Origin: Candidatus Woesearchaeota archaeon
GTDB taxonomy: Archaea > Nanobdellota > Nanobdellia > Woesearchaeales > UBA119
Assembly (NCBI GenBank): GCA_035363095.1
Contig: DAOSEK010000003.1
Location: 8,597-72,596, forward strand
Direction: 5' to 3'
DNA: 64,000 nt
Made by a program: the position numbers and the translations under genes. The first letter of the stretch is position 1; each line of letters begins with the position of its first letter. The notes under the pieces were generated by a model. The model made no database searches. It saw only the letters and a program-made list of their open reading frames with translations, and had not been told where the DNA came from. This document shows positions 25,225 through 61,763 of the stretch, piece by piece.

Positions 25225-25732
25225 AGTTTTCTGTATTGCTTATAATGCCCTGAGAGAAAGTTTTTGAATAGTATGTCTTGATTGCAAATTGGGAATATTA
25301 ACACCTAATTTTTCAATTTATTTTGTTTTTGTGAACTCTTGTTCTTTCTGCTAGTCTGATTCTTTGAAATATCAAAGAAGAGTAGAATGAATGAATTAAT
25401 TGATATCCTCATAATATCATCAAATATTGAGAAGATATCTATGGGATTTATGCCCAGTTAATTCAATCATATTTTTGTTTCCTTCATACCGCTTTCTATA
25501 CTATATTTCTTTAAGAGTATCTGTTTTTTTATTTTTGCAAAAGATTAATTCAATAATTTATTAATTAGTGTGATTTTATAATTATAATGAGTTAAAAAAT
25601 TTTATAAAAATTTTATTATAATTCTGTATAATTTACAGTAAAAAAGAAAAGATTTAAATATAAGTTCTTACAAGGATTGTAATAGGATACAAAAAAGTAT
25701 GCTGATTACGACAATACGTTGTTTTCCACACT

Positions 25733-26377
25733 TTGAATATCCGAGATAGAGTTGGTATGCAAATGGAGCAAGAAACGCTTTTCACAGCGGCCAAATGGAG
25801 TGTTCTAAAATCACTCTCATTTGAAAAGAAATCACCTTTAGAGCTTGCACAAGCAAATAATACCTCTATGTCAAATATTAGTCAGGCATTACGATTTTTA
25901 GAACTTGCAGGTCTTGTGAAAAGTGAACGTGTCTCAAATAGAGATAAAGGACAACCAAGAATAATATATTCTATTGCTAAAGACAATGCGTATTTAATTC
26001 TTACATCTAAATCATTTGTGGATAAAAGACTAATAGATTTAGATGAACACAAAAAAGCAATAGTTCGAATATGGTTTTTTGAAAATTCTTCGATGCACTT
26101 CTTTTTGGAGAAAGCATTTGAAATAATTGAAAAAAATTTAGAGAAATATGAAGCAATCTATGTAGATAAAAATACACTTACTGAAGTTAAGCTTCTTGTT
26201 GTTTTGAAAAAAAGCGATTCGAAAATTGATTTGAAAGATTTCAATGTGACAAACAATGGGATCTCAAAAAAAGTTTCTTACAAGGCTGTTACAAAGGAGT
26301 TTGTGAAAAAAGAAAATAATTCACTATATGCAATTTACGATCCTCAAAATCTCATAGAGGAAAAAATACATGTTTGA
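25733..26377 (+). CDS. Winged-HTH transcriptional regulator (ArsR/TrmB-like) immediately upstream of secreted paralog cluster
   Basis: WSVLKSLSFEKKSPLELAQANNTSMSNISQALRFLELAGLVKS. Confidence 0.5.
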   Translation: MNIRDRVGMQMEQETLFTAAKWSVLKSLSFEKKSPLELAQANNTSMSNISQALRFLELAGLVKSERVSNRDKGQPRIIYSIAKDNAYLILTSKSFVDKRLIDLDEHKKAIVRIWFFENSSMHFFLEKAFEIIEKNLEKYEAIYVDKNTLTEVKLLVVLKKSDSKIDLKDFNVTNNGISKKVSYKAVTKEFVKKENNSLYAIYDPQNLIEEKIHV

Positions 26378-26397
26378 AAATATAGGGAGGGTTTAAT

Positions 26398-27114
26398 ATG
26401 AAAAAAATAGAAAAGATATTTGTGTTTTTGGTGGTGGCAGTGGCCTTTTGCACTGTGTTTGCGTTGGCAGAACCTTATGGAGCAGATGATGTAAGTTATG
26501 TTACATCTTCAAGATATAATACCAGTGCAATCTCTCCAGATTCTATTGAGGCAATAGCTGGAAATGTTACAGAAATAACACTTAATGCAACAACAGTAAC
26601 AACATCTTGGCAGGGTTTTTACGGAAATGTTACGGGAAACATAATATTAGCAGATTCCAGCGGGAATAATTTTTATGATTGGAACCTAACAAATCCATCA
26701 GGACAGGTATATGCAAGCAGATCAAATGCTGTTACGTGGGCAAGTATCGCTTGTATAACTCCAGTATTACTTTCTGGAGAGGAAACCTATCTAGGACAAA
26801 CTTCTGATGATGGAGACAGTGTTACAAATACTTATACCCTGACAAATCATCCTTGGTTTTTATCTGGTACAACCAACATAACTGGTTGCAATGCAACTAA
26901 AGCATATGATTCTACTGGAGGTCCAGGAGCAGATAGTTTTTGGCAGGTTTTATTGAGCGATGGTGTAAATACGGTATATAGCACTATTCTTGAGGATGGC
27001 CTCACAAACGGGTTTAACAATGCTCCTTGGCATTTTGAGTTATTAGTTGGTGAGAATGGAAAAACCGGTAACGAAGGTTCAACACCTTATTACTTTTATG
27101 TAGAATTACAATAA
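26398..27114 (+). CDS. Secreted N-glycosylation-sequon-rich protein, paralog family member A
   Basis: Sec signal VFLVVAVAFCTVFALA and many N-x-S/T sequons. Shares with 27281 and 36629 the blocks W(Q/K)G(F/A)YGNVTG, (F/I)Y(D/N)W, (V)Y(A/S)SR, and a C-terminal YYF(Y/F)VE. Confidence 0.6.
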   Translation: MKKIEKIFVFLVVAVAFCTVFALAEPYGADDVSYVTSSRYNTSAISPDSIEAIAGNVTEITLNATTVTTSWQGFYGNVTGNIILADSSGNNFYDWNLTNPSGQVYASRSNAVTWASIACITPVLLSGEETYLGQTSDDGDSVTNTYTLTNHPWFLSGTTNITGCNATKAYDSTGGPGADSFWQVLLSDGVNTVYSTILEDGLTNGFNNAPWHFELLVGENGKTGNEGSTPYYFYVELQ

Positions 27115-27280
27115 ATTGGTTTTTATTTTTTTATGGTTTTTATTGTTTTTTTAAATTGTATTTTTTTATTTTTTATTGAATGTGTTTGTAGGATTTTATA
27201 ATTTTAAGGGTTTGATTGTTTGGTTAATAATGAATTTGCACTCATGCTTATGATTAATTTAAATTAAAAAAAATAAGGAA

Positions 27281-28021
27281 GTGATTAAAATTAAAGTCAA
27301 AAAAACAAGAATTATTAGATTTTTAACTATGTTTTGTGCGGTGGGTTTTATTTTTATGGTAGCATTATTTACCAAAGCAGACCCTTCAAGTGGAACAACA
27401 ATTAGCAGTAATGTAACTGATAGTGGAAGAACTTATACCCCAGCAAACAGAACGGATCCTGGGGGAACAATTACAACTTTTTCTGTTGATGCTCAACAGC
27501 AAGATACCAGATGGAAGGCTTATGTGGGAAATGTTACAGGAAGTTTAACTTTAGATGATAGTAATGGGATGACAATATATAATTGGACAGTGGGACTTGC
27601 AGATATTACAGGTGAAGTGTATTCTTCACGTGCTTCATCCATATCTTGGAGTCTTATAAGGTGTGCAAACACTACAATTGTTGCTTCAGAACAAACTACC
27701 TTAGGAATGAATTCATCTTCAGCAGATACTATCACAAAGACATTCAATGAAACTACTCATCCTCAATTTGTTACTGCAGGTAAAACCATTAGTTCAGGAT
27801 GTAATGCAACAGCAACCTATGTAAATGACCAAAGACAAGAACAAGCCTCAGCAACATTTCCGATAATTTTGTTAGATGATCAAACTAATTTAGTTTATAC
27901 AACTTTAATGAATCGAAATTCAACAGGTTTTGATAACAGAAGGTATGATTTTCAGATGATTGTTGCAAATAATCCTGCAAGCACCACCACTTATTATTTT
28001 TTCGTAGAACTAGGTAATTAA
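27281..28021 (+). CDS. Secreted N-glycosylation-sequon-rich protein, paralog family member B
   Basis: RWKAYVGNVTGSLTLDDSNGMTIYNWTV...EVYSSRASSISW...YYFFVELGN. Start may be the internal Met at about 27329. Confidence 0.6.
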   Translation: MIKIKVKKTRIIRFLTMFCAVGFIFMVALFTKADPSSGTTISSNVTDSGRTYTPANRTDPGGTITTFSVDAQQQDTRWKAYVGNVTGSLTLDDSNGMTIYNWTVGLADITGEVYSSRASSISWSLIRCANTTIVASEQTTLGMNSSSADTITKTFNETTHPQFVTAGKTISSGCNATATYVNDQRQEQASATFPIILLDDQTNLVYTTLMNRNSTGFDNRRYDFQMIVANNPASTTTYYFFVELGN

Positions 28022-28022
28022 A

Positions 28023-28928
28023 ATGCAAAGTCGTGAAGCAATTAGGAATGTGTATAAGTTAGCATTTTTGTTAATTTTAATTTTCACGTTATTCTTTGCA
28101 TTTTCAGGAATAGTGGCGTCTTATAACTACGAACACGTAAATGTTACATCAAAGGTTAATGTAACTAACGCAGGTCCAGAGATATTAAATACATACATTA
28201 GTTCACCAGTGGTATTAAATGCCGGCACTACAAAAATTGTTTATTGTAATGCAACAATAAGAGATTGGAACGGATTTGGAGATATAGATAATGTTAATGC
28301 TACTTTTTATTATCACTTGAATAATTCACATGATCCTGACGATAATAATGTACATTATACAAACGGTTCTTGTGAAGCAATATCAGATGATGGAGTATAC
28401 ATCGCAAATTATTCGTGTTCATTTGAGGTTTATTATTATGCGAATAACGGAACTTGGAGATGCAATATTTCTGCAAATGATAGTTATTCTTATAATGCCT
28501 CAAACACTACATCAAATGCTACAATAAATGCACTTTATGCTTTGAATGTTACAGATGTAATAGATTACGGAGATCTTTCTGTTACTGATACTAGTGGAAA
28601 TATCACTGCAACAGTAACAAATTTTGGTAATGTTCCAATTAATGTAAGTGTTTTGGGATATGGCGTTACACAAGGTGATGGTGTAGGGTTAGTTTGTGAG
28701 TATGGTTCAAACATAAGTGTTGAGAATCAAAGATTTTCAGGAGCATTAGTCAGTTGGGATGATAAGACATTGCTTGGAACAGAAAATAAGGATGTAGAGA
28801 TTACAATTGGAAAACAAACCGAACCTTTAACTCAGATAACCGCTAATACATATTGGCAACTTTATGTCCCACCAAATCCTTTTGGTCTTTGTACGGGAAC
28901 TATAAGATTCACAGCAACTACACCATAA
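28023..28928 (+). CDS. Secreted sequon-rich surface protein (301 aa)
   Basis: Signal/anchor LAFLLILIFTLFFAFSGIVAS and very many NxT/NxS sites (NVT, NAT, NGS, NYS ...). Confidence 0.5.
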   Translation: MQSREAIRNVYKLAFLLILIFTLFFAFSGIVASYNYEHVNVTSKVNVTNAGPEILNTYISSPVVLNAGTTKIVYCNATIRDWNGFGDIDNVNATFYYHLNNSHDPDDNNVHYTNGSCEAISDDGVYIANYSCSFEVYYYANNGTWRCNISANDSYSYNASNTTSNATINALYALNVTDVIDYGDLSVTDTSGNITATVTNFGNVPINVSVLGYGVTQGDGVGLVCEYGSNISVENQRFSGALVSWDDKTLLGTENKDVEITIGKQTEPLTQITANTYWQLYVPPNPFGLCTGTIRFTATTP

Positions 28929-29199: not shown

Positions 29200-30408
29200 A
29201 TGAGCGATAATTATAGGTTTACAAGAATTGTTAATATGCAGATTGTACTAGTGGTTTTTTTGATAATTTTTGCAAACTTTGGAGTATCTGCATTATTAGG
29301 AGTTAATAGGGTTAGTTTGACTTATAATGATGTTTTAAGAGGGGGATATGCACAGGATAATGTAGTTATAACAATTGGAAGTGATGAATTAATACCTGTA
29401 AATTTTGAGGCTAAAGGAGATATTAAAGAATGGATACGTTTTGAGCCTTTGGATGGCCCTTTACTTGTAAATAAAGATAATAGTGGCATGCTAAAAATAA
29501 TTGTAGAGCCCCCTATTGATTCTAGAGTAGGAGCTTATGAAGGGAAGGTGCTCATTACTACGGGTTCATTAGGCCGAGTTGAATCCGAGATGGGCTCAAG
29601 TGTCGAGGTTGCCTTTGAATTGAAGATTGTAGTGATTATATCTGATACTCAGATCTTATCATGCAACTCTGGCGGATTTGAGATAAAAGACTCTGAGATT
29701 GGACAACCTAATGAATTTTTTGCAACAATTATGAATAATGGCAATGTGAGAATTAAACCATTTATTGAATTTAAAATTTTTGACCAATTGCAAGAACAAG
29801 AGATACTAAGTACGTCATATTTATCTAAAAATGAAATATTACCCACTACATCTCAAGAGATTATTGATTTTATAGAGTTAAATCTTTCAAAAGGACAGTA
29901 CTGGGTTGAGATTAAAAGTTCTGAATGCAGTGGAGATGGTGCACTTAGAACTTTTTCTATACTTGAGAAAGGAGAAATTGGTGATGTTGGCGAGTTTGTG
30001 AGAATAGATAATTTGCCTTGGGCAAGTACTAAAGAGTTAATCCCTATTGTCGCTCATTTCAGAAATAGAGGAGAGAGAAGTGTGTCTGCACAATTTAAAG
30101 GAACTATTAGTAAGGATGGTAAAATTGTCCAAGTTTTAGAATCTGATATTTTAACCGTTGCACCACAGGAAACAGTACCTATTGAAATGTTTTTTAGCCC
30201 AAAAGATATTGGTCAGTACAAAATTAATGGCAGGGTATACTACAACAACAAAATTACCTTTCAAAAGGGTTCTATTATTAATGTTAATCCATCTAATTCA
30301 TTGGAAGAATCAAATGGGGAATTTATGTTAAGTATAATTTTATCGGTAATAATTGTAATTATAGCAGTATTTGTTTTCTTGATAATAAAAAGGAAAAAAA
30401 ATAAATGA
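29200..30408 (+). CDS. Large surface protein with N-terminal signal anchor and C-terminal TM anchor + basic tail
   Basis: N-terminal VLVVFLIIFANFGVSA; C-terminal ILSVIIVIIAVFVFLIIKRKKNK. Confidence 0.5.
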   Translation: MSDNYRFTRIVNMQIVLVVFLIIFANFGVSALLGVNRVSLTYNDVLRGGYAQDNVVITIGSDELIPVNFEAKGDIKEWIRFEPLDGPLLVNKDNSGMLKIIVEPPIDSRVGAYEGKVLITTGSLGRVESEMGSSVEVAFELKIVVIISDTQILSCNSGGFEIKDSEIGQPNEFFATIMNNGNVRIKPFIEFKIFDQLQEQEILSTSYLSKNEILPTTSQEIIDFIELNLSKGQYWVEIKSSECSGDGALRTFSILEKGEIGDVGEFVRIDNLPWASTKELIPIVAHFRNRGERSVSAQFKGTISKDGKIVQVLESDILTVAPQETVPIEMFFSPKDIGQYKINGRVYYNNKITFQKGSIINVNPSNSLEESNGEFMLSIILSVIIVIIAVFVFLIIKRKKNK

Positions 30409-30600: not shown

Positions 30601-32757
30601 TCAGTAAATTTTTATGTTCTCAGGCGTATGTTGTAGTGAAATGTTTTTTACTGAGCTTAGGTCTTCTAATGAGTTAATTCTTAAAAGATTTAATGATTTG
30701 GTATAAAGCAAATCTTCAATGTATAAACTTCTTTCTACACCTGCACCTAAGTATCTATTAGCACCAGTGGAGTGGTCTATTAAACCTCTTAGTGTTATTG
30801 AGTCTTTACTTATATTGTATACTAAAGCACCATTATAATTTTCAGAGGTTTTCTCATAGTTATAGTTATATCCTGGGATTACCAAGAGGTTTTTTTCTCT
30901 TGAAAACAAGAATGCTTTGTGTTCGTAAAGAGCAGTGGAATCTGAGTAACGCTCTTCTGATAAATAACTTGCAATCTCTTTAGGTTGCGATACATCACTT
31001 ACATCAAAAAGCGATATTTTAAGCCCTTTGATTCTGCCGGTTTGTGTTGCATCTTTTCCAATCCCAATTATTGTTGATTCATCATAAGGATGTAGATAGT
31101 TTGAAAACCCTGGAATTTTTAACTGACCTAACTCTTTGATTTCAAAAGGGTCTGATAAATCAATTACAAAGAATGGATCTATTTGCTTAAAGGTAACCAT
31201 ATAGAGCTTATCCGCAATAAACCTTGTTGAATATATTCTTTCATCCTCAGCAAGACCATCTAGTTTATCAAGAATTTTAAGGTTTTTATCAAGTGTATAT
31301 ATTTGATTTGTTGAAACTTTTCTTGAGGTGTCATAACTAGACCATCTAGGGCTTAATGTCGTTGCAATCCTGAATACTTCGTTATATTCATCCATGGAAA
31401 ATTGATTAATTATACTTCCTGCAACCTTATTATTTGCACTAGGAGTTATTTCACCTTTTTCAACTGAGATCTTATTGATTACCGTAAATTCAAAGGCCTC
31501 AAAATCCTGAAGTTTCTTTTTTATTTCTTCTTCAAGCATATCTTCTATTTCTTCTTGTTTATCAGGATCAAGAGAATTGAAATAATCGTTATATACATTA
31601 AGTATCTTATATCTTTTTTCGTAGAGAGTAAGCACATCATTATCAGTAGCCTTTACTTTTTCGATGTATGTTTTTTGTTTATCTGTTAATTTGTCTTTGA
31701 ACAACTCAATTGTCAAGTCTTGCTTTAACTCGTACTCATTGATATATTTGGTATATGTTATATATATGTTTTCTTGGGACATGTATATGTTTTGAGAGCC
31801 TTCAACCAAGAACGATTTTGATTTGATTTGATTGTCTGGTTTTGCTATATTTAGAGAACTAATTGTAACAAAAATAGGGTTATCGTAAGGTATTGGGTAA
31901 TAGTAAAGATTTGATACATCAACCTGTTTTGGTGTCATTCCCTCGTAATATATAGGAATTGGGTAATCTCTTCGATATGAAGGATAAGTCGTTGTTAAAA
32001 AATATATATAACCTTGCGACATCCTTGAATTAAAGTAGTTTCCTTCAAATTTATACTCAGCCGTAAGGACTGGTGCTGACCTATCAGCGATATCATAAAG
32101 TTCAAAAAAACTGAATTGTTGATTTGGAATATATGCATCTATCGATCTTATAAAAGGGTCATTTCTTCCAATGTTTCCAAAGACTGCTAGATTATCTTCA
32201 TAAATGAAAAGACCAGCTGGAGAGTTATTAAATTTAATTGTAGATATTACTTTGGCATCTTCTCCAGGATATGCCTTGATGATATATAGTATGTTTTTTG
32301 AAATGGTGTATATGTAATTGCCATCTGTTTTAAGTATATCTCCTTCATCAATTCCTGTAACCTGCACATTTGTTTCAGAGTAGTCTAAAGATTCTCCTTT
32401 AGCAACACTTGCTTGAGAAAGAACCATTGAACTATCACTTGCAAGTGAATCCATTGAAAAAGAACTTTCCATGTTTCTTAAATATGGATAAGCATAGTAA
32501 TCTTGATTAGAATTTCGATTTAAAAATTCGAAAACTTCTTCAGCAGACTTAAATTGTAGTGCTTTTAGGTCTTTAGATTTTGCTAGATTTTCAAATGTAT
32601 ATTCTTTTGTTAATCCAGATGGATTCTTTGAAATTGTGATGGTGTTTACACAGGAACTAAAAATAAAGCCCCCTATTAAAATTATAGCTAATACAAAAAT
32701 TAGATTTGTTTTTTGAATACTTTTTTCATTCATAATCGTTTTATCCATTAAAATCAC
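30601..32757 (-). CDS. Secreted beta-propeller domain protein (718 aa)
   Basis: N-terminal signal anchor LIFVLAIILIGGFIFSSC, then repeated strand-like segments consistent with a beta-propeller domain family protein. Confidence 0.5.
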   Translation of the reverse strand: MILMDKTIMNEKSIQKTNLIFVLAIILIGGFIFSSCVNTITISKNPSGLTKEYTFENLAKSKDLKALQFKSAEEVFEFLNRNSNQDYYAYPYLRNMESSFSMDSLASDSSMVLSQASVAKGESLDYSETNVQVTGIDEGDILKTDGNYIYTISKNILYIIKAYPGEDAKVISTIKFNNSPAGLFIYEDNLAVFGNIGRNDPFIRSIDAYIPNQQFSFFELYDIADRSAPVLTAEYKFEGNYFNSRMSQGYIYFLTTTYPSYRRDYPIPIYYEGMTPKQVDVSNLYYYPIPYDNPIFVTISSLNIAKPDNQIKSKSFLVEGSQNIYMSQENIYITYTKYINEYELKQDLTIELFKDKLTDKQKTYIEKVKATDNDVLTLYEKRYKILNVYNDYFNSLDPDKQEEIEDMLEEEIKKKLQDFEAFEFTVINKISVEKGEITPSANNKVAGSIINQFSMDEYNEVFRIATTLSPRWSSYDTSRKVSTNQIYTLDKNLKILDKLDGLAEDERIYSTRFIADKLYMVTFKQIDPFFVIDLSDPFEIKELGQLKIPGFSNYLHPYDESTIIGIGKDATQTGRIKGLKISLFDVSDVSQPKEIASYLSEERYSDSTALYEHKAFLFSREKNLLVIPGYNYNYEKTSENYNGALVYNISKDSITLRGLIDHSTGANRYLGAGVERSLYIEDLLYTKSLNLLRINSLEDLSSVKNISLQHTPENIKIY

Positions 32758-36628: not shown

Positions 36629-37369
36629 TTAGGATATCTCTGCAAAGAAATAATAGGTACTAGGCGTTGGACTTGTTGGATCCTCAGGAACTATTAACTG
36701 GAAGTTGTAGTTTGCTAAATCATATCCTGCAGTCGAATCCTCAAGTATTGTTGTATAAACAACATTTCCATCTATATCAGATAATAATACCTCTTGGAAA
36801 AATGAATCTTCTGAAACTTCTTGGATACTATCATTTACATAAGTGGATATTGCTCTACAACTACTATTTGATATTTTTACTGTTCCAACATAAAAGGACT
36901 TATGAGTAGTAGTATTAAAAGTATTATTAATACTATCAGATAAAGAGCTATTAATATTGAGAGTACTCTCTTCTGAACTGATATCCGTTGGTTCACTGCA
37001 ATTTATAGTTGACCAATTTATCTGAGAGCTTCTTGATACATATATCTCCCCAGAGATTATTGCAAGGTCCCAGTTATATATTGATTTTCCACTAGCATCA
37101 TCTAAAGTTAATAGCCCTGATATATTACCTACATAGGCCTTCCACCTTTCGGTTTGGAAGCTTCCATTAAGTATCATTGTAGTAAATGAGCCACCAGCCG
37201 TTGTCAGTGAAGCTGCTTGACTAGGAGCAATAGTTTCAGTGACATTATAAGTAATATTAAGACCTGTTGGAATCGCCAATACAATCAAAGGGTTTAATAT
37301 TATACAAAGGCTGATCAGTAATAAAAACAGATATGTGACTTTTATAGATTTAGTTAAAGGAGGTATCAT
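36629..37369 (-). CDS. Secreted N-glycosylation-sequon-rich protein, paralog family member C
   Basis: ERWKAYVGNISGLLTLDDASGKSIYNWDL...EIYVSRSSQINW...YYFFAEIS. Start MIPPLTKS overlaps the upstream stop as ATGA (37366-37369). Confidence 0.55.
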   Translation of the reverse strand: MIPPLTKSIKVTYLFLLLISLCIILNPLIVLAIPTGLNITYNVTETIAPSQAASLTTAGGSFTTMILNGSFQTERWKAYVGNISGLLTLDDASGKSIYNWDLAIISGEIYVSRSSQINWSTINCSEPTDISSEESTLNINSSLSDSINNTFNTTTHKSFYVGTVKISNSSCRAISTYVNDSIQEVSEDSFFQEVLLSDIDGNVVYTTILEDSTAGYDLANYNFQLIVPEDPTSPTPSTYYFFAEIS

Positions 37370-37950
37370 TTTTGAACACCCCCTGATTTTTGATGAGATG
37401 ATTTTTGAGAGTTTAACTTTTTTTGAGCTCTTGATAAAACTGTCCAAATTGTCTTTGGGCTTTTGTTTAGAAGTGATGCGATTTCATTCAAGTTTAGAGA
37501 TTTTTCCTTAAGACTTAGTGAGATACACTCCAAAATAGATAGATTAGAATTTCTAAATACTTCTGTATTTACAAAAAATCCTTTATTTAAGAATAACTCG
37601 GCGGTAAAACGTTTTTGAGTTTTTACAGCGTTATATGTTGACCATATTGTTCTTGGGTCTCTACCTAATAAAACTGCAATCTGAGAAAAAGAAAGGGATT
37701 TCACTTCAATTAAATACTTTACAATTGCTCTAAGTCCACTAATTTTTGTGGAGAAAATTTTAATTGGGAGTTCTACACCTTTTTTTTCAAGTAAATTTTC
37801 TTTTGAAGGCTTTAACAAATCAAAAACAACAGGTCTTCCAAACTCATCAAAACTATCGCCTATATTTACTGAATAAGAAACAGAATACTCGCAATTACCT
37901 GTTTTTTGAAAGAACATATACTTATCATGTAAGAACTTATTTATAAACAT
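37366..37950 (-). CDS. DNA-binding protein with two sigma-70 region-4/LuxR-like HTH repeats
   Basis: LSFSQIAVLLGRDPRTIWSTYNAV and LNLNEIASLLNKSPKTIWTVLSRAQKKL. Stop is translationally coupled (ATGA) to the secreted paralog C. Confidence 0.5.
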   Translation of the reverse strand: MFINKFLHDKYMFFQKTGNCEYSVSYSVNIGDSFDEFGRPVVFDLLKPSKENLLEKKGVELPIKIFSTKISGLRAIVKYLIEVKSLSFSQIAVLLGRDPRTIWSTYNAVKTQKRFTAELFLNKGFFVNTEVFRNSNLSILECISLSLKEKSLNLNEIASLLNKSPKTIWTVLSRAQKKLNSQKSSHQKSGGVQK

Positions 37951-39381: not shown

Positions 39382-39837
39382 ATGGTTAAACTAAAAAAAA
39401 ATAATAAGGCACAATTTGCAATGGAGTACGTGCTTACTATTGCAATCGTTTTAGCTATTTCAATTCCTGCAATATCCATTGCTTACAGAGAAACAATGGG
39501 AAAAACTAAGGAACTTGAAAAAAATCAGCTACAAACCCTTGCTGAAACGATTGTTACAAATTCCGAGGTTGTTTACTATCACGGTGTTCCAAGCAGGGTT
39601 ACTGCACAAGTTGTTATTCCAACAGATATAACTAGGATAAGAGCAGGAGGCCCTGAGCACGATCACATTATTTTTGATACCCAAAAGTATGGAGAGATTG
39701 CCTTTCCGGGCACAGTTCCTCTAAATTTTTCAATTGTAGGACTTGGAAAAGGAAAAACAAGATTAAAATTTGATTGCGTATATTATACTCTTTCCGATGG
39801 AGGGAAAAAAGCAATTGTTAACATTACTAAATCATAA
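39382..39837 (+). CDS. Archaeal type IV pilin-like protein (class III signal peptide)
   Basis: KA|QFAMEYVLTIAIVLAISIPAI: predicted prepilin peptidase site gives Q+1 and E+5. Confidence 0.55.
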   Translation: MVKLKKNNKAQFAMEYVLTIAIVLAISIPAISIAYRETMGKTKELEKNQLQTLAETIVTNSEVVYYHGVPSRVTAQVVIPTDITRIRAGGPEHDHIIFDTQKYGEIAFPGTVPLNFSIVGLGKGKTRLKFDCVYYTLSDGGKKAIVNITKS

Positions 39838-39876
39838 TAGATCTTAGACTATTTTACGAATATAAATTATTTTAAT

Positions 39877-40323
39877 ATGAAAAAATCACAATCCGCTACT
39901 GAGCTTGCAATAGTAATTGGAATAATGATGGCAGTGATGGTTGTTTTTGTAATGGCCATCTTTTCAAGATACTATGAATTTGCAAAGCTTGAGACACGAA
40001 GAAATTTAGAAGATGTAGCTAGTTATATTGAAAGTGAGATAAAGTTTGCAATAAAAAGCGAAGCAGGCTTTGTTAGAACTTTTTCCCTTCCACAAAATAT
40101 TGCGGGGTTGGGGTATTCCATAACAATTGATAACCCTAAAACTGATTTTTCAGTAATAATTATTAAATATAATAACAACATGGGTTCTGATATAACAATC
40201 CCTTTTGATTATAACATTACAGCAAATAATAATAGGATTAATACAGGTAGCAGTACGAATAAATTAAATAAAAGTACTTCACATCCAAATGTTATCCAAC
40301 TTAATGACCCTCATTTAGAATAG
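39877..40323 (+). CDS. Archaeal type IV pilin-like protein
   Basis: KS|QSATELAIVIGIMMAVMVVFVMAI: Q+1, E+5. Confidence 0.55.
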   Translation: MKKSQSATELAIVIGIMMAVMVVFVMAIFSRYYEFAKLETRRNLEDVASYIESEIKFAIKSEAGFVRTFSLPQNIAGLGYSITIDNPKTDFSVIIIKYNNNMGSDITIPFDYNITANNNRINTGSSTNKLNKSTSHPNVIQLNDPHLE

Positions 40324-40335
40324 TAAAAAGCGTTT

Positions 40336-40773
40336 TTGACAATGGCAAGGAAGAAATCACAAACATGGTCTTTTGATATTGTAGTAGCAACAGTAATCTT
40401 TGTAGGGGTTTTTTTGCTAGTTTTCTTTATTACATCAGAAAAGGTAAATCATCCAACCAACAAGAAAATCTTTGTTCAGCAAGATAGTATTGATAGGGTT
40501 TTCTCAATTAGGACTAACCCTGCACATGGTTTTTTAAATGAACAAAATGTAGTTGACCCCGCAAAACTTCTAAAATTCGCTAAAGACGGCTATGAGAGCT
40601 CAAAAAAATTGCTTGGGGAGAACTATGAGTTTTGCGTAATCTTTGAAGACGAGGAAGGAAAGATTCAACCAATAATTACTCAAGATGGAAAATATTATGT
40701 AGGTATTGGTTCAAACCTTGTGACTATAAAAGGAGATAGCTCGACGACCTATACTTGTGGAGTAGTCATCTAG
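40336..40773 (+). CDS. Archaeal type IV pilin-like protein
   Basis: KS|QTWSFDIVVATVIFVGVFLLVFFI: Q+1, D+6. Confidence 0.45.
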   Translation: MTMARKKSQTWSFDIVVATVIFVGVFLLVFFITSEKVNHPTNKKIFVQQDSIDRVFSIRTNPAHGFLNEQNVVDPAKLLKFAKDGYESSKKLLGENYEFCVIFEDEEGKIQPIITQDGKYYVGIGSNLVTIKGDSSTTYTCGVVI

Positions 40774-48100: not shown

Positions 48101-48841
48101 CTATATTTTTATTCGTAATTTATCTCCTATTGAAAAATTATAAAAGTTTGATAATCCAGCATTTATTTCAAATACATATTTTGAATTAAATGAATCATTT
48201 TTTAAAGGATTATAAGATGGGCAGGTTAGATTACATAATGGTAGATTTTTTTCGATATGTACAATTTCACTTTTTTCATTGACCCAGATGATATCTATTG
48301 AAAATAACATTCCTTTCATCCAAAAAGAAAGTGAACCTGGTTTTTCAAATACAAATAACATTCCTGAATCATTTGAAATATTATCTCTTAAACCAAGCCC
48401 TTTTTGTCTTGAACTTAATGTATTTGAAATTTCAGTATAAAAACAGGCTTCTTTAATACATAAAATCGGAAGGTTTTCTTTGTCAAGATTAGAATTTAAA
48501 AGCTCTGAAGACACATAATTTTGCAGTTCCACATTTCTTTGGTCCAATAGTCTTAAATCATCTTCAAAAGAAAATTCCTTATTTAATATTTCATTTTCAC
48601 TTGATTGATTTTTAGAATTAAATGAAGAATTAAAAGAGTGATTAGTTGTTGTGTTATATTCTAAATAAATATCTTTTCTACTAAGATTATAATCATTAAT
48701 TTCTTTTTCTTTAGAAAAGGTTAAAAAAGAATTAGCAGAGTATATATTGGAAATAATTAAGTATGTTACAAACAAAAAAATAATAGCTACTCCTAAACCT
48801 AGTAAATTCTTAAAAATATTGTTTTCAAATCTTTTAACCAT
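48101..48841 (-). CDS. DUF192 domain protein with N-terminal membrane anchor
   Basis: GLGLRDNISNDSGMLFVFEKPGSLSFWMKGMLFSIDIIWVNEKSEIVHI...PLCNLTCPSY matches the DUF192 signature. Confidence 0.55.
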   Translation of the reverse strand: MVKRFENNIFKNLLGLGVAIIFLFVTYLIISNIYSANSFLTFSKEKEINDYNLSRKDIYLEYNTTTNHSFNSSFNSKNQSSENEILNKEFSFEDDLRLLDQRNVELQNYVSSELLNSNLDKENLPILCIKEACFYTEISNTLSSRQKGLGLRDNISNDSGMLFVFEKPGSLSFWMKGMLFSIDIIWVNEKSEIVHIEKNLPLCNLTCPSYNPLKNDSFNSKYVFEINAGLSNFYNFSIGDKLRIKI

Positions 48842-59676: not shown

Positions 59677-60936
59677 ATGGCTTTTGAAAACGTGTTTGGC
59701 AAAGGAAAGAAGGAATTGATTGAGGAATGGAGATTTAATTCAAAAAATCCAATTGTCTCCTCATTAGTTGCTTCCAATCTCTCAAATAATGGAGAAAATT
59801 TAATCATATTTGGCACTAAAAGTGGTCAGGTTTTCGCAATAAGTGATAAGTCTGAAATAAAATGGTTATACAAAATCAAAAGGAATATTGATAAAATTCA
59901 AGCGTTCTTCGTTGATGAAACAAGGGATAATTCTATATATGTAAAACCATTTGCATACGACATTAATAATGATGGGAAAAAAGAGATTTTAATTGGCTCA
60001 GATTCAGGAGAGGTTATATGCCTTGATATTAATGGAAAAGAGCTATGGAAGTTTGAAACCCAAGGCAAGATTAGAGGAATGCCCTTTGTTGCAGAAACAT
60101 CAAAGGGACTTATGGTGGTTGTAACCTCAACAAAAGGCAAGATTTTTTGGCTTGATGTGAACGGAAATATAGTTGATGAAAGACAAGTTGAATCAGGGAT
60201 TGAATCCACTCCACTGTTTTTTAAAGATAATGGAAAAGATAGGTTAGTATTCGGATCAAATGATGGTTATATATATTGCTTTAATGAGCAAAAAGAAGTA
60301 TTATGGAGATATAAAACACAAGGAAAGGTAAGTGCAAGACCTGTTATCACAAATCTTGATACGAAAGATAAGATATTCATAATCATTGGTTCTCATGATG
60401 GTTTTTTGTATGCTTTAGATTCTTTTGGAAACTTTCACTGGAAGTTTAAAACTCAGGATAAGATAGTAAACGAAATTGCACTTGCTGATTTTAATAAAGA
60501 TGGAATTCCAGAAATTGTGTTTTGTTCTTATGATTCAAATATCTATGCACTTAATGCAAGTGGGGATTTAATTTGGAACTATCAAACAGATTTCTGGATT
60601 GAAGAAAGACCAATTATTGAAGATATTGATAATGATGGAAATCAAGAAGTGATTGTAGGTTCATATGACCATTCATTGTATATTTTAGATGCACAAGGCT
60701 CATTTTTACTTAACTACGTTCCAGGTATATCAAAGTTATCTAACCAAGCAGGTCATTTTAGTGATTTTGTAACAAGTGATCCGGGACAATATAAAGGAAA
60801 AAAATTGGCAAAAGAAGACCTTGGTGGAATTGTAATTGGAACAGATCTTATAATCGATAAAAACAAAAAAAAATGGATTATTGTTGCCGTGAAGAATGGT
60901 GACATTCAAAAATTTGAATTCAAAACAAAAGGTTAA
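59677..60936 (+). CDS. PQQ-like beta-propeller repeat protein (cytoplasmic; no signal peptide)
   Basis: Repeated SDSGEVICLD..GKELWKF / SNDGYIYCF..KEVLWRY / SHDGFLYALD / SYDSNIYALN / SYDHSLYILD blades. Confidence 0.7.
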   Translation: MAFENVFGKGKKELIEEWRFNSKNPIVSSLVASNLSNNGENLIIFGTKSGQVFAISDKSEIKWLYKIKRNIDKIQAFFVDETRDNSIYVKPFAYDINNDGKKEILIGSDSGEVICLDINGKELWKFETQGKIRGMPFVAETSKGLMVVVTSTKGKIFWLDVNGNIVDERQVESGIESTPLFFKDNGKDRLVFGSNDGYIYCFNEQKEVLWRYKTQGKVSARPVITNLDTKDKIFIIIGSHDGFLYALDSFGNFHWKFKTQDKIVNEIALADFNKDGIPEIVFCSYDSNIYALNASGDLIWNYQTDFWIEERPIIEDIDNDGNQEVIVGSYDHSLYILDAQGSFLLNYVPGISKLSNQAGHFSDFVTSDPGQYKGKKLAKEDLGGIVIGTDLIIDKNKKKWIIVAVKNGDIQKFEFKTKG

Positions 60937-60938
60937 AG

Positions 60939-61763
60939 GTGAAAATCATGGGAATTCCTTTAGTAAGTGATAAAAATGAGATCATAAGGGTCAAGACGTA
61001 TGTCGAAGGTTTGGATGAGGTTATGCAGGGAGGTATTCCTAAGGGGCATGTAATTTTAGTTTCAGGAACTAGTGGTACTATGAAATCTTCTCTTTCTTTT
61101 GTAACACTTTATTATAATGCACTTGAAAAGCGAAATTGCGTTTATCTTTCACTTGAACAATCCTACATCTCACTTATCAATCACATGGTAAATCTTGATT
61201 TGGACCTATCAAAAATTAATATGATCATTACAACAGATATTTCAAAGCTTGAAACTAGGTCTCAAGAGGCAAAAAACTCAAAAAAAGGGAATTTGTTTGT
61301 AATAGATCTTGCAGCCTTAAGAAAAGAGATTAAGGACACAAAAACCGGAGAGAGCGGGAATTGGGTAAATGTTATACGAAATGTGATTAAAAAGGTCAAG
61401 GAATATATAACTTTAGATATACTTGTAATAGATTCTTTATCAGCACTTTATGTTCTTTCAAACTTCGTGAATCCAAGAGTTGAGTTATTCCACGTATTTG
61501 AATTCTTAAGAGATGAAGGCATCACAACGTTTCTAATATCAGAAATGCCCCTTGACAAATCAAAGTTTGGTGATTATGAGATTGAGGACTATTTATCTGA
61601 TGGAATCATTCTTGTAGAAAGAACAGAAAAGTATAGAAAGGTAGTAAGGTCTATTTCAATTGTAAAGATGAGGGCAACTAAATGTGATTTGGATGTGTAT
61701 TCACTTGAATATACTGATCGAAAATTCAGAGCTCTTTACGGAGGTCAGCCACCACTCGTATAA
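60939..61763 (+). CDS. RecA-superfamily ATPase, KaiC/RadA-like single domain
   Basis: GIPKGHVILVSGTSGTMKSSLS (Walker A) ...LDILVIDSLSAL (Walker B); starts 3 nt after the PQQ gene stop. Confidence 0.65.
   Translation: MKIMGIPLVSDKNEIIRVKTYVEGLDEVMQGGIPKGHVILVSGTSGTMKSSLSFVTLYYNALEKRNCVYLSLEQSYISLINHMVNLDLDLSKINMIITTDISKLETRSQEAKNSKKGNLFVIDLAALRKEIKDTKTGESGNWVNVIRNVIKKVKEYITLDILVIDSLSALYVLSNFVNPRVELFHVFEFLRDEGITTFLISEMPLDKSKFGDYEIEDYLSDGIILVERTEKYRKVVRSISIVKMRATKCDLDVYSLEYTDRKFRALYGGQPPLV

Follow-up and report, generated by a model that had tools for sequence, protein, structure and literature searches.

A lineage-wide family of sequon-rich, export-type proteins in Woesearchaeota, with a possible role in a cell-surface assembly

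The 64,000 nt stretch of DNA considered here (hereafter the window) comes from contig DAOSEK010000003.1 of a Candidatus Woesearchaeota archaeon (GenBank assembly GCA_035363095.1, positions 8,597 to 72,596 of the forward strand). It carries three related genes for small proteins with export-type N-termini, which we name P1, P2 and P3, together with two helix-turn-helix (HTH) genes of different types, termed h (HTH1) and s (HTH2), and genes for two predicted membrane proteins, C and D (Table 1). These are arranged as h→P1, P2→C and D, followed six kilobases away on the other strand by s→P3. All three open reading frames (ORFs) for P proteins exist in the sequence where an initial annotation, made from the DNA alone, had placed them. 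Independent gene calls in other assemblies of the same organism give the same 238, 246 and 301 aa products for P1, P2 and C, and 17 contigs from several metagenomes carry exact copies of P2, with gene calls that agree with the window ORFs.

Table 1. Features of the P gene cluster (positions in the window) and ATPase fusions in related loci (positions in the locus named). Alpha and beta denote the two clades described in the text.
Feature	Position	Strand	Description
HTH1 (h)	25733..26377	+	ArsR/SmtB-like winged HTH with C-terminal extension of ~120 aa; heads the h→P1 unit
P1	26398..27114	+	alpha-clade P protein, 238 aa, 7 sequons
T-rich spacer	27115..27205	+	several T5-T7 runs after P1; read from sequence
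P2	27281..28021	+	beta-clade P protein, 246 aa, 9 sequons; GTG start preceded by AAGGAAG
C	28023..28928	+	301 aa, N-terminal transmembrane helix/signal anchor, two Ig-like domains, 17 sequons
D	29200..30408	+	402 aa type I membrane protein, 1 sequon
P3	36629..37369	-	second beta-clade P protein, 11 sequons
HTH2 (s)	37366..37950	-	194 aa, two sigma-70-region-4/HTH_38-like HTH repeats; translationally coupled to P3
ATPase fusion, L034	1642-5214		
ATPase fusion, L045	3742-7140		
ATPase fusion, L047	3772-7134		
ATPase fusion, L057	3640-7284		
ATPase fusion, L073	3839-7300		
ATPase fusion, L080	4097-7744		

The initial annotation had proposed that the three P proteins form a paralogous family, and pairwise alignment bears this out. 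The proteins can be aligned over their full length, with BLASTP identities of 34% for P1 and P2 (E = 1e-35), 46% for P2 and P3 (E = 8e-60) and 38% for P1 and P3 (E = 4e-38), and when a family hidden Markov model (HMM) is run over the window in six frames, these three copies and no others are recovered. The sequence blocks described as common to them are present in all, except that P3 has SSCRAIS in place of GCNAT and ends in YYFFAE. The claim that all are rich in N-glycosylation sequons (N-x-S/T) stands in comparison with the rest of the window: P1, P2 and P3 carry 2.9, 3.7 and 4.5 sequons per 100 aa, respectively, which is 3.6-5.5 times the density of 0.81 in the 41 other window ORFs. When each protein is compared with shuffles of its own composition, the excess is clear for P2 (P = 0.0075) and P3 (P = 0.0005) and only marginal for P1 (P = 0.10).

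The family extends far beyond this organism. A profile built from the three paralogs matches at least 1,364 proteins in a collection of 5.8 billion sequences. The matches listed are all unnamed or 'hypothetical', none has a precomputed Pfam domain, and the named sources are Woesearchaeota, Nanoarchaeota and Nanoarchaeia. An exhaustive HMM search of 1.84 billion representatives at 50% identity recovers 1,379 clusters at E <= 0.001, of which 484 reach E <= 1e-30. One-genome-per-species data yield 421 confirmed matches, and the best 80 of these 421 loci, which we labelled L001-L080 and compared for synteny, are nearly all assigned to Woesearchaeota, Pacearchaeota or Nanoarchaeota. Some carry 'Methanosarcinales' binchicken titles, which we take to be mislabels because their gene content equals that of the other loci. 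The suggestion that the family is lineage-specific is thereby upheld, the lineage being that of DPANN genomes labelled Woesearchaeota or Pacearchaeota.

Curated collections (Pfam-A, NCBIfam, PHROGs and PADLOC) contain no family that P1 or P3 matches at threshold. For P2 the only Pfam match is to DUF6550 (E = 0.061, 14 bits against a cut-off of 27), and NCBIfam, PHROGs and PADLOC return none. A profile search of PDB sequences at E <= 10 gives noise only, with no similarity to enzymes and no entry for the archaeal threads discussed below, and literature searches found no description of the family. The P family is real, statistically solid, previously unannotated and outside any known family. The initial annotation had left the shared domain unassigned, and this holds after profile and fold searches, which reveal no match to a common Ig-like family. 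The genomic system around the P family is also richer and more conserved than the window alone reveals.

The architecture of the P proteins was established from 230 distinct family members. A hydrophobic stretch is followed by the segment A(77%)-x-P(97%)-x-G(82%)-(P/A)-x-(I/V), then by a variable S/T-rich linker of ~18 residues. The core itself begins with G(97%)-x-(V/I)-T(90%)-x-(L/I)-x-(L/I). In P1 these elements appear as a Sec-type signal peptide, the conserved x-P-x-G segment, the S/T-rich linker and a beta-rich core of ~180 aa with one Cys pair. We considered whether A-x-P-x-G is a mere signal-peptidase site and rejected this explanation, as the segment persists upstream of P domains that lie inside longer proteins. 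Many such proteins retain it in the form P-x-G-A-N-(V/I)-T-x-(I/L)-x-S-E-R, and because it is kept where the domain is internal, we regard the N-terminal segment as part of the domain.

Sequons are conserved in position as well as in number. The motif GN(V/I)(T/S)G occurs in 86-97% of family members and AGNVT in 97% of one of the two clades described below (alpha), and the mean is 8-9 sequons per family protein. The Sec-type N-termini, the two conserved cysteines and the enriched, position-conserved sequons are consistent with exported N-glycoproteins. An AlphaFold2 model of P1, based on 62 sequences, has a confident beta-rich core from residue ~71 onwards (predicted local distance difference test, pLDDT, mostly 85-97), with 13 strands and two short helices. 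Its N-terminal helix corresponds to the signal peptide, and residues 23-58 fall below pLDDT 50 in this monomer model. Foldseek searches of the PDB and BFVD with the model give no match at E <= 0.001 (best E = 0.75 and 0.058, respectively; template modelling (TM) score <= 0.27), and the predicted P fold is apparently new.

Clustering of 233 stand-alone members by core identity separates two deep clades that track operon position. The alpha clade has 120 members, including P1; its genes lie directly downstream of h (71 of 120) or are the first of a pair of P genes. The beta clade has 113 members, including P2 and P3; its genes are second in a pair, with C following in 49 of 113 and s preceding in 34 of 113. 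Given two deep, position-linked clades, the paralogs are old, sub-functionalised partners and not recent duplicates or variable copies, and the agreement between clade membership and operon position argues for two distinct, co-operating types of subunit.

Residues W71, G76, L84, W95, G102, C119, T145, C164 and F213 (P1 numbering) are invariant in both clades. This set, with its one Cys pair, reads as a structural signature and argues for a structural over a catalytic role. A second group of conserved positions bears on a different explanation, in which the P domain would be a soluble or surface-tethered binding or catalytic module, such as a lectin, a nutrient or host-envelope binder, or a small hydrolase, and would act as the C-terminal functional domain of the long proteins described below. 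In the beta clade, 96-99% of members keep each of R108, E128 and H151. D140 and T145 hardly vary in either clade, and a fold unlike anything known makes a new binding site possible; the lectin-like and beta-helix passengers of the long proteins are, moreover, typical of carbohydrate-active surface proteins. In the alpha clade, however, R108, E128 and H151 drop to 56, 64 and 78%, respectively. This relaxation argues against a catalytic site common to the family and leaves room for a clade-specific binding site; the trio hints at a binding or interface site particular to the beta proteins. Two clades in fixed operon order, coupled to membrane-anchored Ig-like proteins, point instead to a complex, the long proteins always end in this domain, as is typical for anchoring or assembly modules, and no Pfam or PDB similarity to an enzyme appears even at E <= 10. 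On balance we consider a binding or catalytic module unlikely.

The arrangement of genes in the window is shared by L001 and L005-L015, and many other genomes carry an expanded supercluster of the form [P P C]-[s P]-[h P]-[h P P C]. The units [h→alpha], [alpha beta C (D)] and [s→beta] recur in the 80 related loci, often with 4 nt gene overlaps, and a locus may hold up to eight P copies. Pairing of s with a P gene is seen also in L003, L004 and many other loci. In the window the stop codon of HTH2 and the start codon of P3 overlap as ATGA (HTH and P genes very often share 4 nt overlaps elsewhere), the stop codon of P2 is 1 nt from the start of C, and the two adjacent P genes are parted by a spacer, a feature that recurs at ~100-290 nt in many related loci. 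The T-rich part of the window spacer looks like an archaeal oligo-T terminator or attenuator that would separate h-P1 from P2-C. The overlaps, the T-rich spacer and the 1 nt gap therefore make [h-P1], [P2-C], [D] and [s-P3] the likely units of expression.

Upstream of HTH1 lies an AT-rich intergenic stretch of 508 nt (25225-25732) with several TATA-like stretches, for example TTTAAATATAAG near 25655, which is likely to be the control region of the h-P1 unit. A promoter scan returned 30 sites against 27.6 expected, and the scan uses a bacterial model that is uninformative for an archaeon. Gene calls of 206 aa in other assemblies indicate that translation of HTH1 probably begins at the ATG at 25757.

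The initial annotation had placed each paralog downstream of an HTH regulator, which is correct for P1 and P3, whereas P2 sits behind P1. It had also assigned a winged-HTH regulator to the position upstream of the tandem pair. HTH1 does have weak matches of this type, but all are below curated cut-offs: HTH_34 (19.4 bits against 27), HTH_5 (18.5 against 22, E = 0.0019), the NCBIfam ArsR/SmtB family (E = 1.4e-6, 28.1 bits against 55) and Lrs14. The gene at the equivalent place in L001 has a precomputed HTH_5 match that is unmarked. HTH2 matches Pfam HTH_38 over two stretches (E = 4.8e-9, 36.3 bits against 27) and Sigma70_r4_2 (E = 1.1e-6, 28.7 bits against 25.7); such matches indicate a DNA-binding fold and not the identity of a sigma factor. 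Each of the h→alpha and s→beta units is headed by a dedicated HTH gene, whose product probably regulates that unit independently.

Proteins without known relatives, small HTH genes and gene overlaps are common in archaeal viruses, and we therefore considered that the cluster might belong to a virus, provirus or other mobile element, with the P proteins as virion or accessory proteins. The genomic context led us to reject a viral or mobile origin as very improbable. No PHROGs match exists for P, C or D; integrase, capsid and terminase genes are not nearby; and the same synteny is found in ~80 chromosomal loci of different species. The flanks are of housekeeping type (U32 peptidase, TGT, NurA, RadC, MutL/MutS and TFB), and the other ordinary chromosomal neighbours in the window include SMC, GT4, PIG-L, enolase and GAPDH. 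The TFB gene also marks the window as archaeal. The GC content of the window is ~30% and shows no contrast at the cluster.

The two membrane proteins likewise have no curated family match at threshold in Pfam, NCBIfam, PHROGs or PADLOC. C has 416 homologues and is more conserved than the P proteins, indeed the most conserved gene of the cluster, because the 44 members that were aligned share 45-75% identity. Its AlphaFold2 model (pLDDT 92.4) has an N-terminal transmembrane helix and two beta-sandwich domains, whose fold matches are of the generic tandem Ig-like kind (the best over two domains are CsuE, FimH, tapasin and RbmA, with TM-scores <= 0.40, those of CsuE and FimH being 0.29-0.40). D begins with a signal peptide and continues with a beta-rich ectodomain, which matches CARDB weakly, and a C-terminal transmembrane helix followed by KRKKNK; its gene lies after that for C in the window and in window-type loci that were fully sampled, such as L001, L005-L009, L011, L012, L014 and L015. 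Both had been annotated as further sequon-rich proteins. This is accurate for C, and for D, with a single sequon (0.25 per 100 aa), it is not, although the C-terminal membrane anchor ascribed to D is real.

The co-occurrence of sequon-rich, export-type subunits with membrane-anchored Ig-like proteins raises the possibility that the P proteins form an S-layer or a similar two-dimensional lattice. S-layers of the SlaA/SlaB type consist of a glycosylated outer component and a membrane-anchored beta-sandwich stalk with a C-terminal transmembrane helix. The layout of D is like that of SlaB, and by analogy with SlaB and SlaA in Sulfolobales the alpha and beta proteins would form a glycosylated canopy on stalks made by C and D. 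The conservation of the cluster across the lineage, its two obligate subunit types, and the presence of the alpha domain at the C-terminus of large surface proteins, which would suit insertion into a lattice, are all compatible with this arrangement. However, Pfam and NCBIfam searches detect no homology to SlaA/SlaB or to any other known S-layer family. The P subunits are much smaller, ~210 mature residues being few for an archaeal S-layer protein, and they have many paralogs. Up to eight copies per locus, with a regulator for each unit, would be unusual for a constitutive gene that is very highly expressed. In addition, a Woesearchaeota transcriptome study (PMC11606122) reports 'S-layer protein genes', as a separate annotation, among the top transcripts, and these may be distinct from the P genes. 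We regard an S-layer as rather unlikely.

P domains are found in long proteins as well as alone. Among the best 150 representatives, 24 proteins of 350-2,359 aa carry the domain at their extreme C-terminus, and with two more from the related loci all 26 clearly classified long C-terminal fusions have a domain of the alpha type. A Pfam scan of ten long fusions gave matches in eight, with Beta_helix/NosD, DUF2341, Big_7, Big_13, FN3-like and LamG-like passengers. The initial annotation had raised the idea of an adhesin module, and this gains real ground from the fusions scanned, in which the same domain ends long proteins with beta-helix, Ig-like or lectin-like passengers. Several long fusions (P0294, P0318, P0319, P0343 and others, as well as the genes at 7145-8953 in L041 and 6161-8443 in L067) also have a domain resembling the S59 (Nup98-type) autopeptidase; the PF04096 match in P0294 scores 31 bits against a cut-off of 28.4. 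The motif V-x-H-F-(S/T)-x-Y-S is present ~150 aa upstream of the P domain in 15 of the 26 and, with the S59-like domain, suggests self-cleavage at HF|S as in Nup98.

A domain that is C-terminal in 26 diverse long proteins, and whose genes are accompanied by one for a highly conserved, membrane-anchored protein (C), might serve purely to anchor proteins at the surface by docking them on C, D or another part of the envelope, the small stand-alone copies then regulating or competing with the fusions. The stand-alone copies outnumber the fusions by 125 to 24 among 149 classified representatives, though, and are themselves conserved as two clades throughout the lineage. Domains of the beta type are never found with passengers, yet are as well conserved as those of the alpha type. 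We consider a role confined to anchoring improbable.

A different kind of fusion occurs in six loci (Table 1), two of them labelled Pacearchaeota. Here a divergent P-like domain forms the extracellular N-terminus of a membrane protein of 1,120-1,215 aa and is followed by CarboxypepD_reg repeats, a transmembrane helix and a cytoplasmic HerA/DUF87 (FtsK-like) ATPase. In the four such loci that were inspected (L034, L045, L047 and L057), the fusion gene precedes two co-directional genes for products of ~108 and ~285 aa, and these are followed by P, h and P. In loci of the Pacearchaeota type, these two small genes have no annotation. The fused P-like domain itself has only four matches by homology search. 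A search of the window for a separately encoded homologue of the fused HerA ATPase, or of the middle part of this ATPase, found none.

We favour, at about even confidence, the reading that the alpha and beta proteins are structural subunits of a lineage-specific glycoprotein surface assembly that has C and D as its anchors and serves as a scaffold for display. Such an assembly fits the occurrence of small, sequon-rich proteins of export type, of two subunit types in fixed order, of their coupling to C and D, and of long proteins that end in an alpha domain. We infer a course that runs from export through glycosylation, assembly and anchoring, under HTH regulation, to any role in host contact. 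The precursor would cross the membrane by the Sec route and lose its signal peptide, the Cys pair would form a disulphide, and the conserved sequons would be glycosylated. Alpha and beta subunits would then associate with each other and with the co-encoded C and D, of which C (N-terminally anchored, with tandem Ig-like domains) and D (C-terminally anchored) may hold the assembly at the cell. Long proteins with adhesin-like passengers likewise terminate in an alpha-type domain, and the assembly could therefore double as a scaffold on which they are displayed.

The most likely form of the proposed assembly would be a short fibre or stalk, and roughly half of our confidence in the general reading attaches to it. 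In this form the N-terminal segment (P-x-G-A-N-V-T-x-I...) would pair with a neighbouring subunit, in the manner of the donor strands of archaeal threads, TasA/Abp fibres and cannulae. The segment is conserved and yet disordered in the monomer model, and a donor-strand-like contact is for this reason the most attractive mechanism.

The closest functional analogue is the thread of Sulfolobus acidocaldarius, whose subunit Saci_0406 is a Sec/SPI-processed, all-beta protein of ~206 aa with five N-glycans at N-x-S/T sites and an N-terminal tail; a small gene cluster encodes it together with its paralog Saci_0405, and threads are not known to have an assembly ATPase (10.1101/2022.04.26.489512). The P proteins share with it a Sec-type N-terminus, a beta-rich mature protein of ~210 aa, 7-11 sequons, a disordered N-terminal segment and the presence of paralogs, which are common properties and not proof of membership. 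In contrast, they have neither sequence similarity to Saci_0406 in the PDB profile search nor fold similarity to it in Foldseek. Threads occur in Crenarchaea. The P cluster adds two Ig-like membrane proteins and dedicated HTH genes. For the P proteins, donor-strand exchange and isopeptide bonds are hypothetical.

The TasA fibres of Bacillus, the AbpA bundling pili and the CanA cannulae are likewise built from secreted, beta-rich subunits of ~200 aa, which need no chaperone and polymerise extracellularly by means of an N-terminal strand; accessory paralogs nucleate or anchor these fibres. Unlike TasA and AbpA, the P proteins have no Peptidase_M73/TasA match in Pfam and no similarity of fold, and CanA appears in the fold search with P1 only as noise (rank 32, E = 2.7, TM-score 0.18). 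No SipW-type signal peptidase or TapA-like gene is present among the h, P, C, D and s genes of the cluster or the neighbours scanned. A likeness to chaperone-usher pili, such as those of FimH and CsuE, lies in the use of one assembly domain that stands alone in shaft subunits and is C-terminal in adhesins, whose N-terminal passenger binds a receptor; here all clearly classified copies that bear passengers are of the alpha type, and the domain is C-terminal in them. The P system nevertheless differs in having no outer membrane, and no usher or PapD-like chaperone families in the cluster. FimA gives only noise against the P1 model (E = 1.5-2.3, TM-score <= 0.15 on the query), so that the P fold is no recognisable Ig-like pilin, and the matches of C to CsuE and FimH reflect generic tandem Ig-like domains. 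The P proteins differ from type IV pilins and archaellins in that the A-x-P-x-G junction lies after the hydrophobic stretch, as in Sec/SPI substrates. In kind, the P system most resembles the non-type-IV surface fibres or the S-layer systems of archaea.

Several points weigh against a surface assembly of alpha and beta subunits. Polymerisation, surface location and glycosylation are inferred. The window holds one alpha and two beta genes, an unbalanced set, and D is recognisable in only 16 ORFs (in 15 loci and the window). The near-invariant R/E/H trio of the beta clade could be a ligand-binding or catalytic site. The donor-strand idea has the conserved N-terminal segment, predicted to be disordered, as its sole basis. 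Scans found no ATPase, chaperone, usher, sortase or dedicated signal peptidase encoded in or beside the window cluster. Finally, Foldseek gives no match of the P fold to thread, TasA, Abp, CanA or chaperone-usher pilins, and the analogy with threads and other fibres is therefore functional and not homologous.

Few DPANN archaea are as widespread as Woesearchaeota and Pacearchaeota, and we know of no well-studied cultured member and of no account of how they touch a host or a surface. For such contact the P cluster is a concrete candidate that can be traced by sequence: it combines two conserved subunit types, two membrane anchors and dedicated regulators with a link to long adhesin-like proteins and, in some lineages, to a membrane ATPase. 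If the P proteins do assemble, they would add a new family to the few non-type-IV surface structures of archaea (threads, bundling pili, cannulae and hami), and would provide markers for host-contact machinery in metagenomes as well as targets for cryo-electron tomography, glycoproteomics and heterologous assembly. A bolder form of this proposal, which we hold to be quite doubtful, is that the cluster encodes a hitherto unrecognised surface apparatus found across the Woesearchaeota/Pacearchaeota-type lineage, in which a glycoprotein pair of new fold builds a host-contact organelle. Where the HerA/FtsK-type ATPase fusion is present, this organelle would serve as an ATP-coupled fibre or conduit for the transfer of DNA or other macromolecules between the symbiont and its host.

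Some other genes in the window may be noted. Between 14815 and 17048 (-), ~9-11 kb upstream of the cluster, are genes for a GT4 glycosyltransferase and a PIG-L family de-N-acetylase, which are possible glycan-synthesis genes. Directly after D, on the opposite strand, 30601-32757 (-) encodes a 718 aa protein with an N-terminal hydrophobic stretch and a full-length match to PF09826 'Beta_propel' (E = 4e-143). Only in the closest relative (L005) does its gene adjoin the cluster, and the protein is therefore probably outside the conserved module. At 39382-40773 (+), 1.4 kb from HTH2-P3 with RadC between, are three ORFs in tandem, of 151, 148 and 145 aa, that have no Pfam match. Their products start with K-(A/S)-Q and a hydrophobic helix (KAQ|FAMEYVL, KSQ|SATELAI and KSQ|TWSFDIV), and these N-termini resemble the class III (type IV pilin-like) signal peptides of archaea; the window showed no gene for a pilus ATPase or platform. 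At 59677-61763 (+), an FG-GAP/PQQ-type beta-propeller protein (419 aa) and a KaiC-like ATPase (274 aa) are encoded with 1 base between the ORFs and no evident link to the cluster. Two ORFs were considered as additional members of the system and set aside. A 1,168 aa ORF, a candidate for an ATPase fusion in the window, encodes SMC. A 246 aa ORF at 48101-48841 (-), considered as a fourth paralog, was ruled out by an hhalign probability of 0.8%; its product is a DUF192 protein that has an N-terminal transmembrane helix and a sequon-rich linker, with 10 sequons in all (4.1 per 100 aa).

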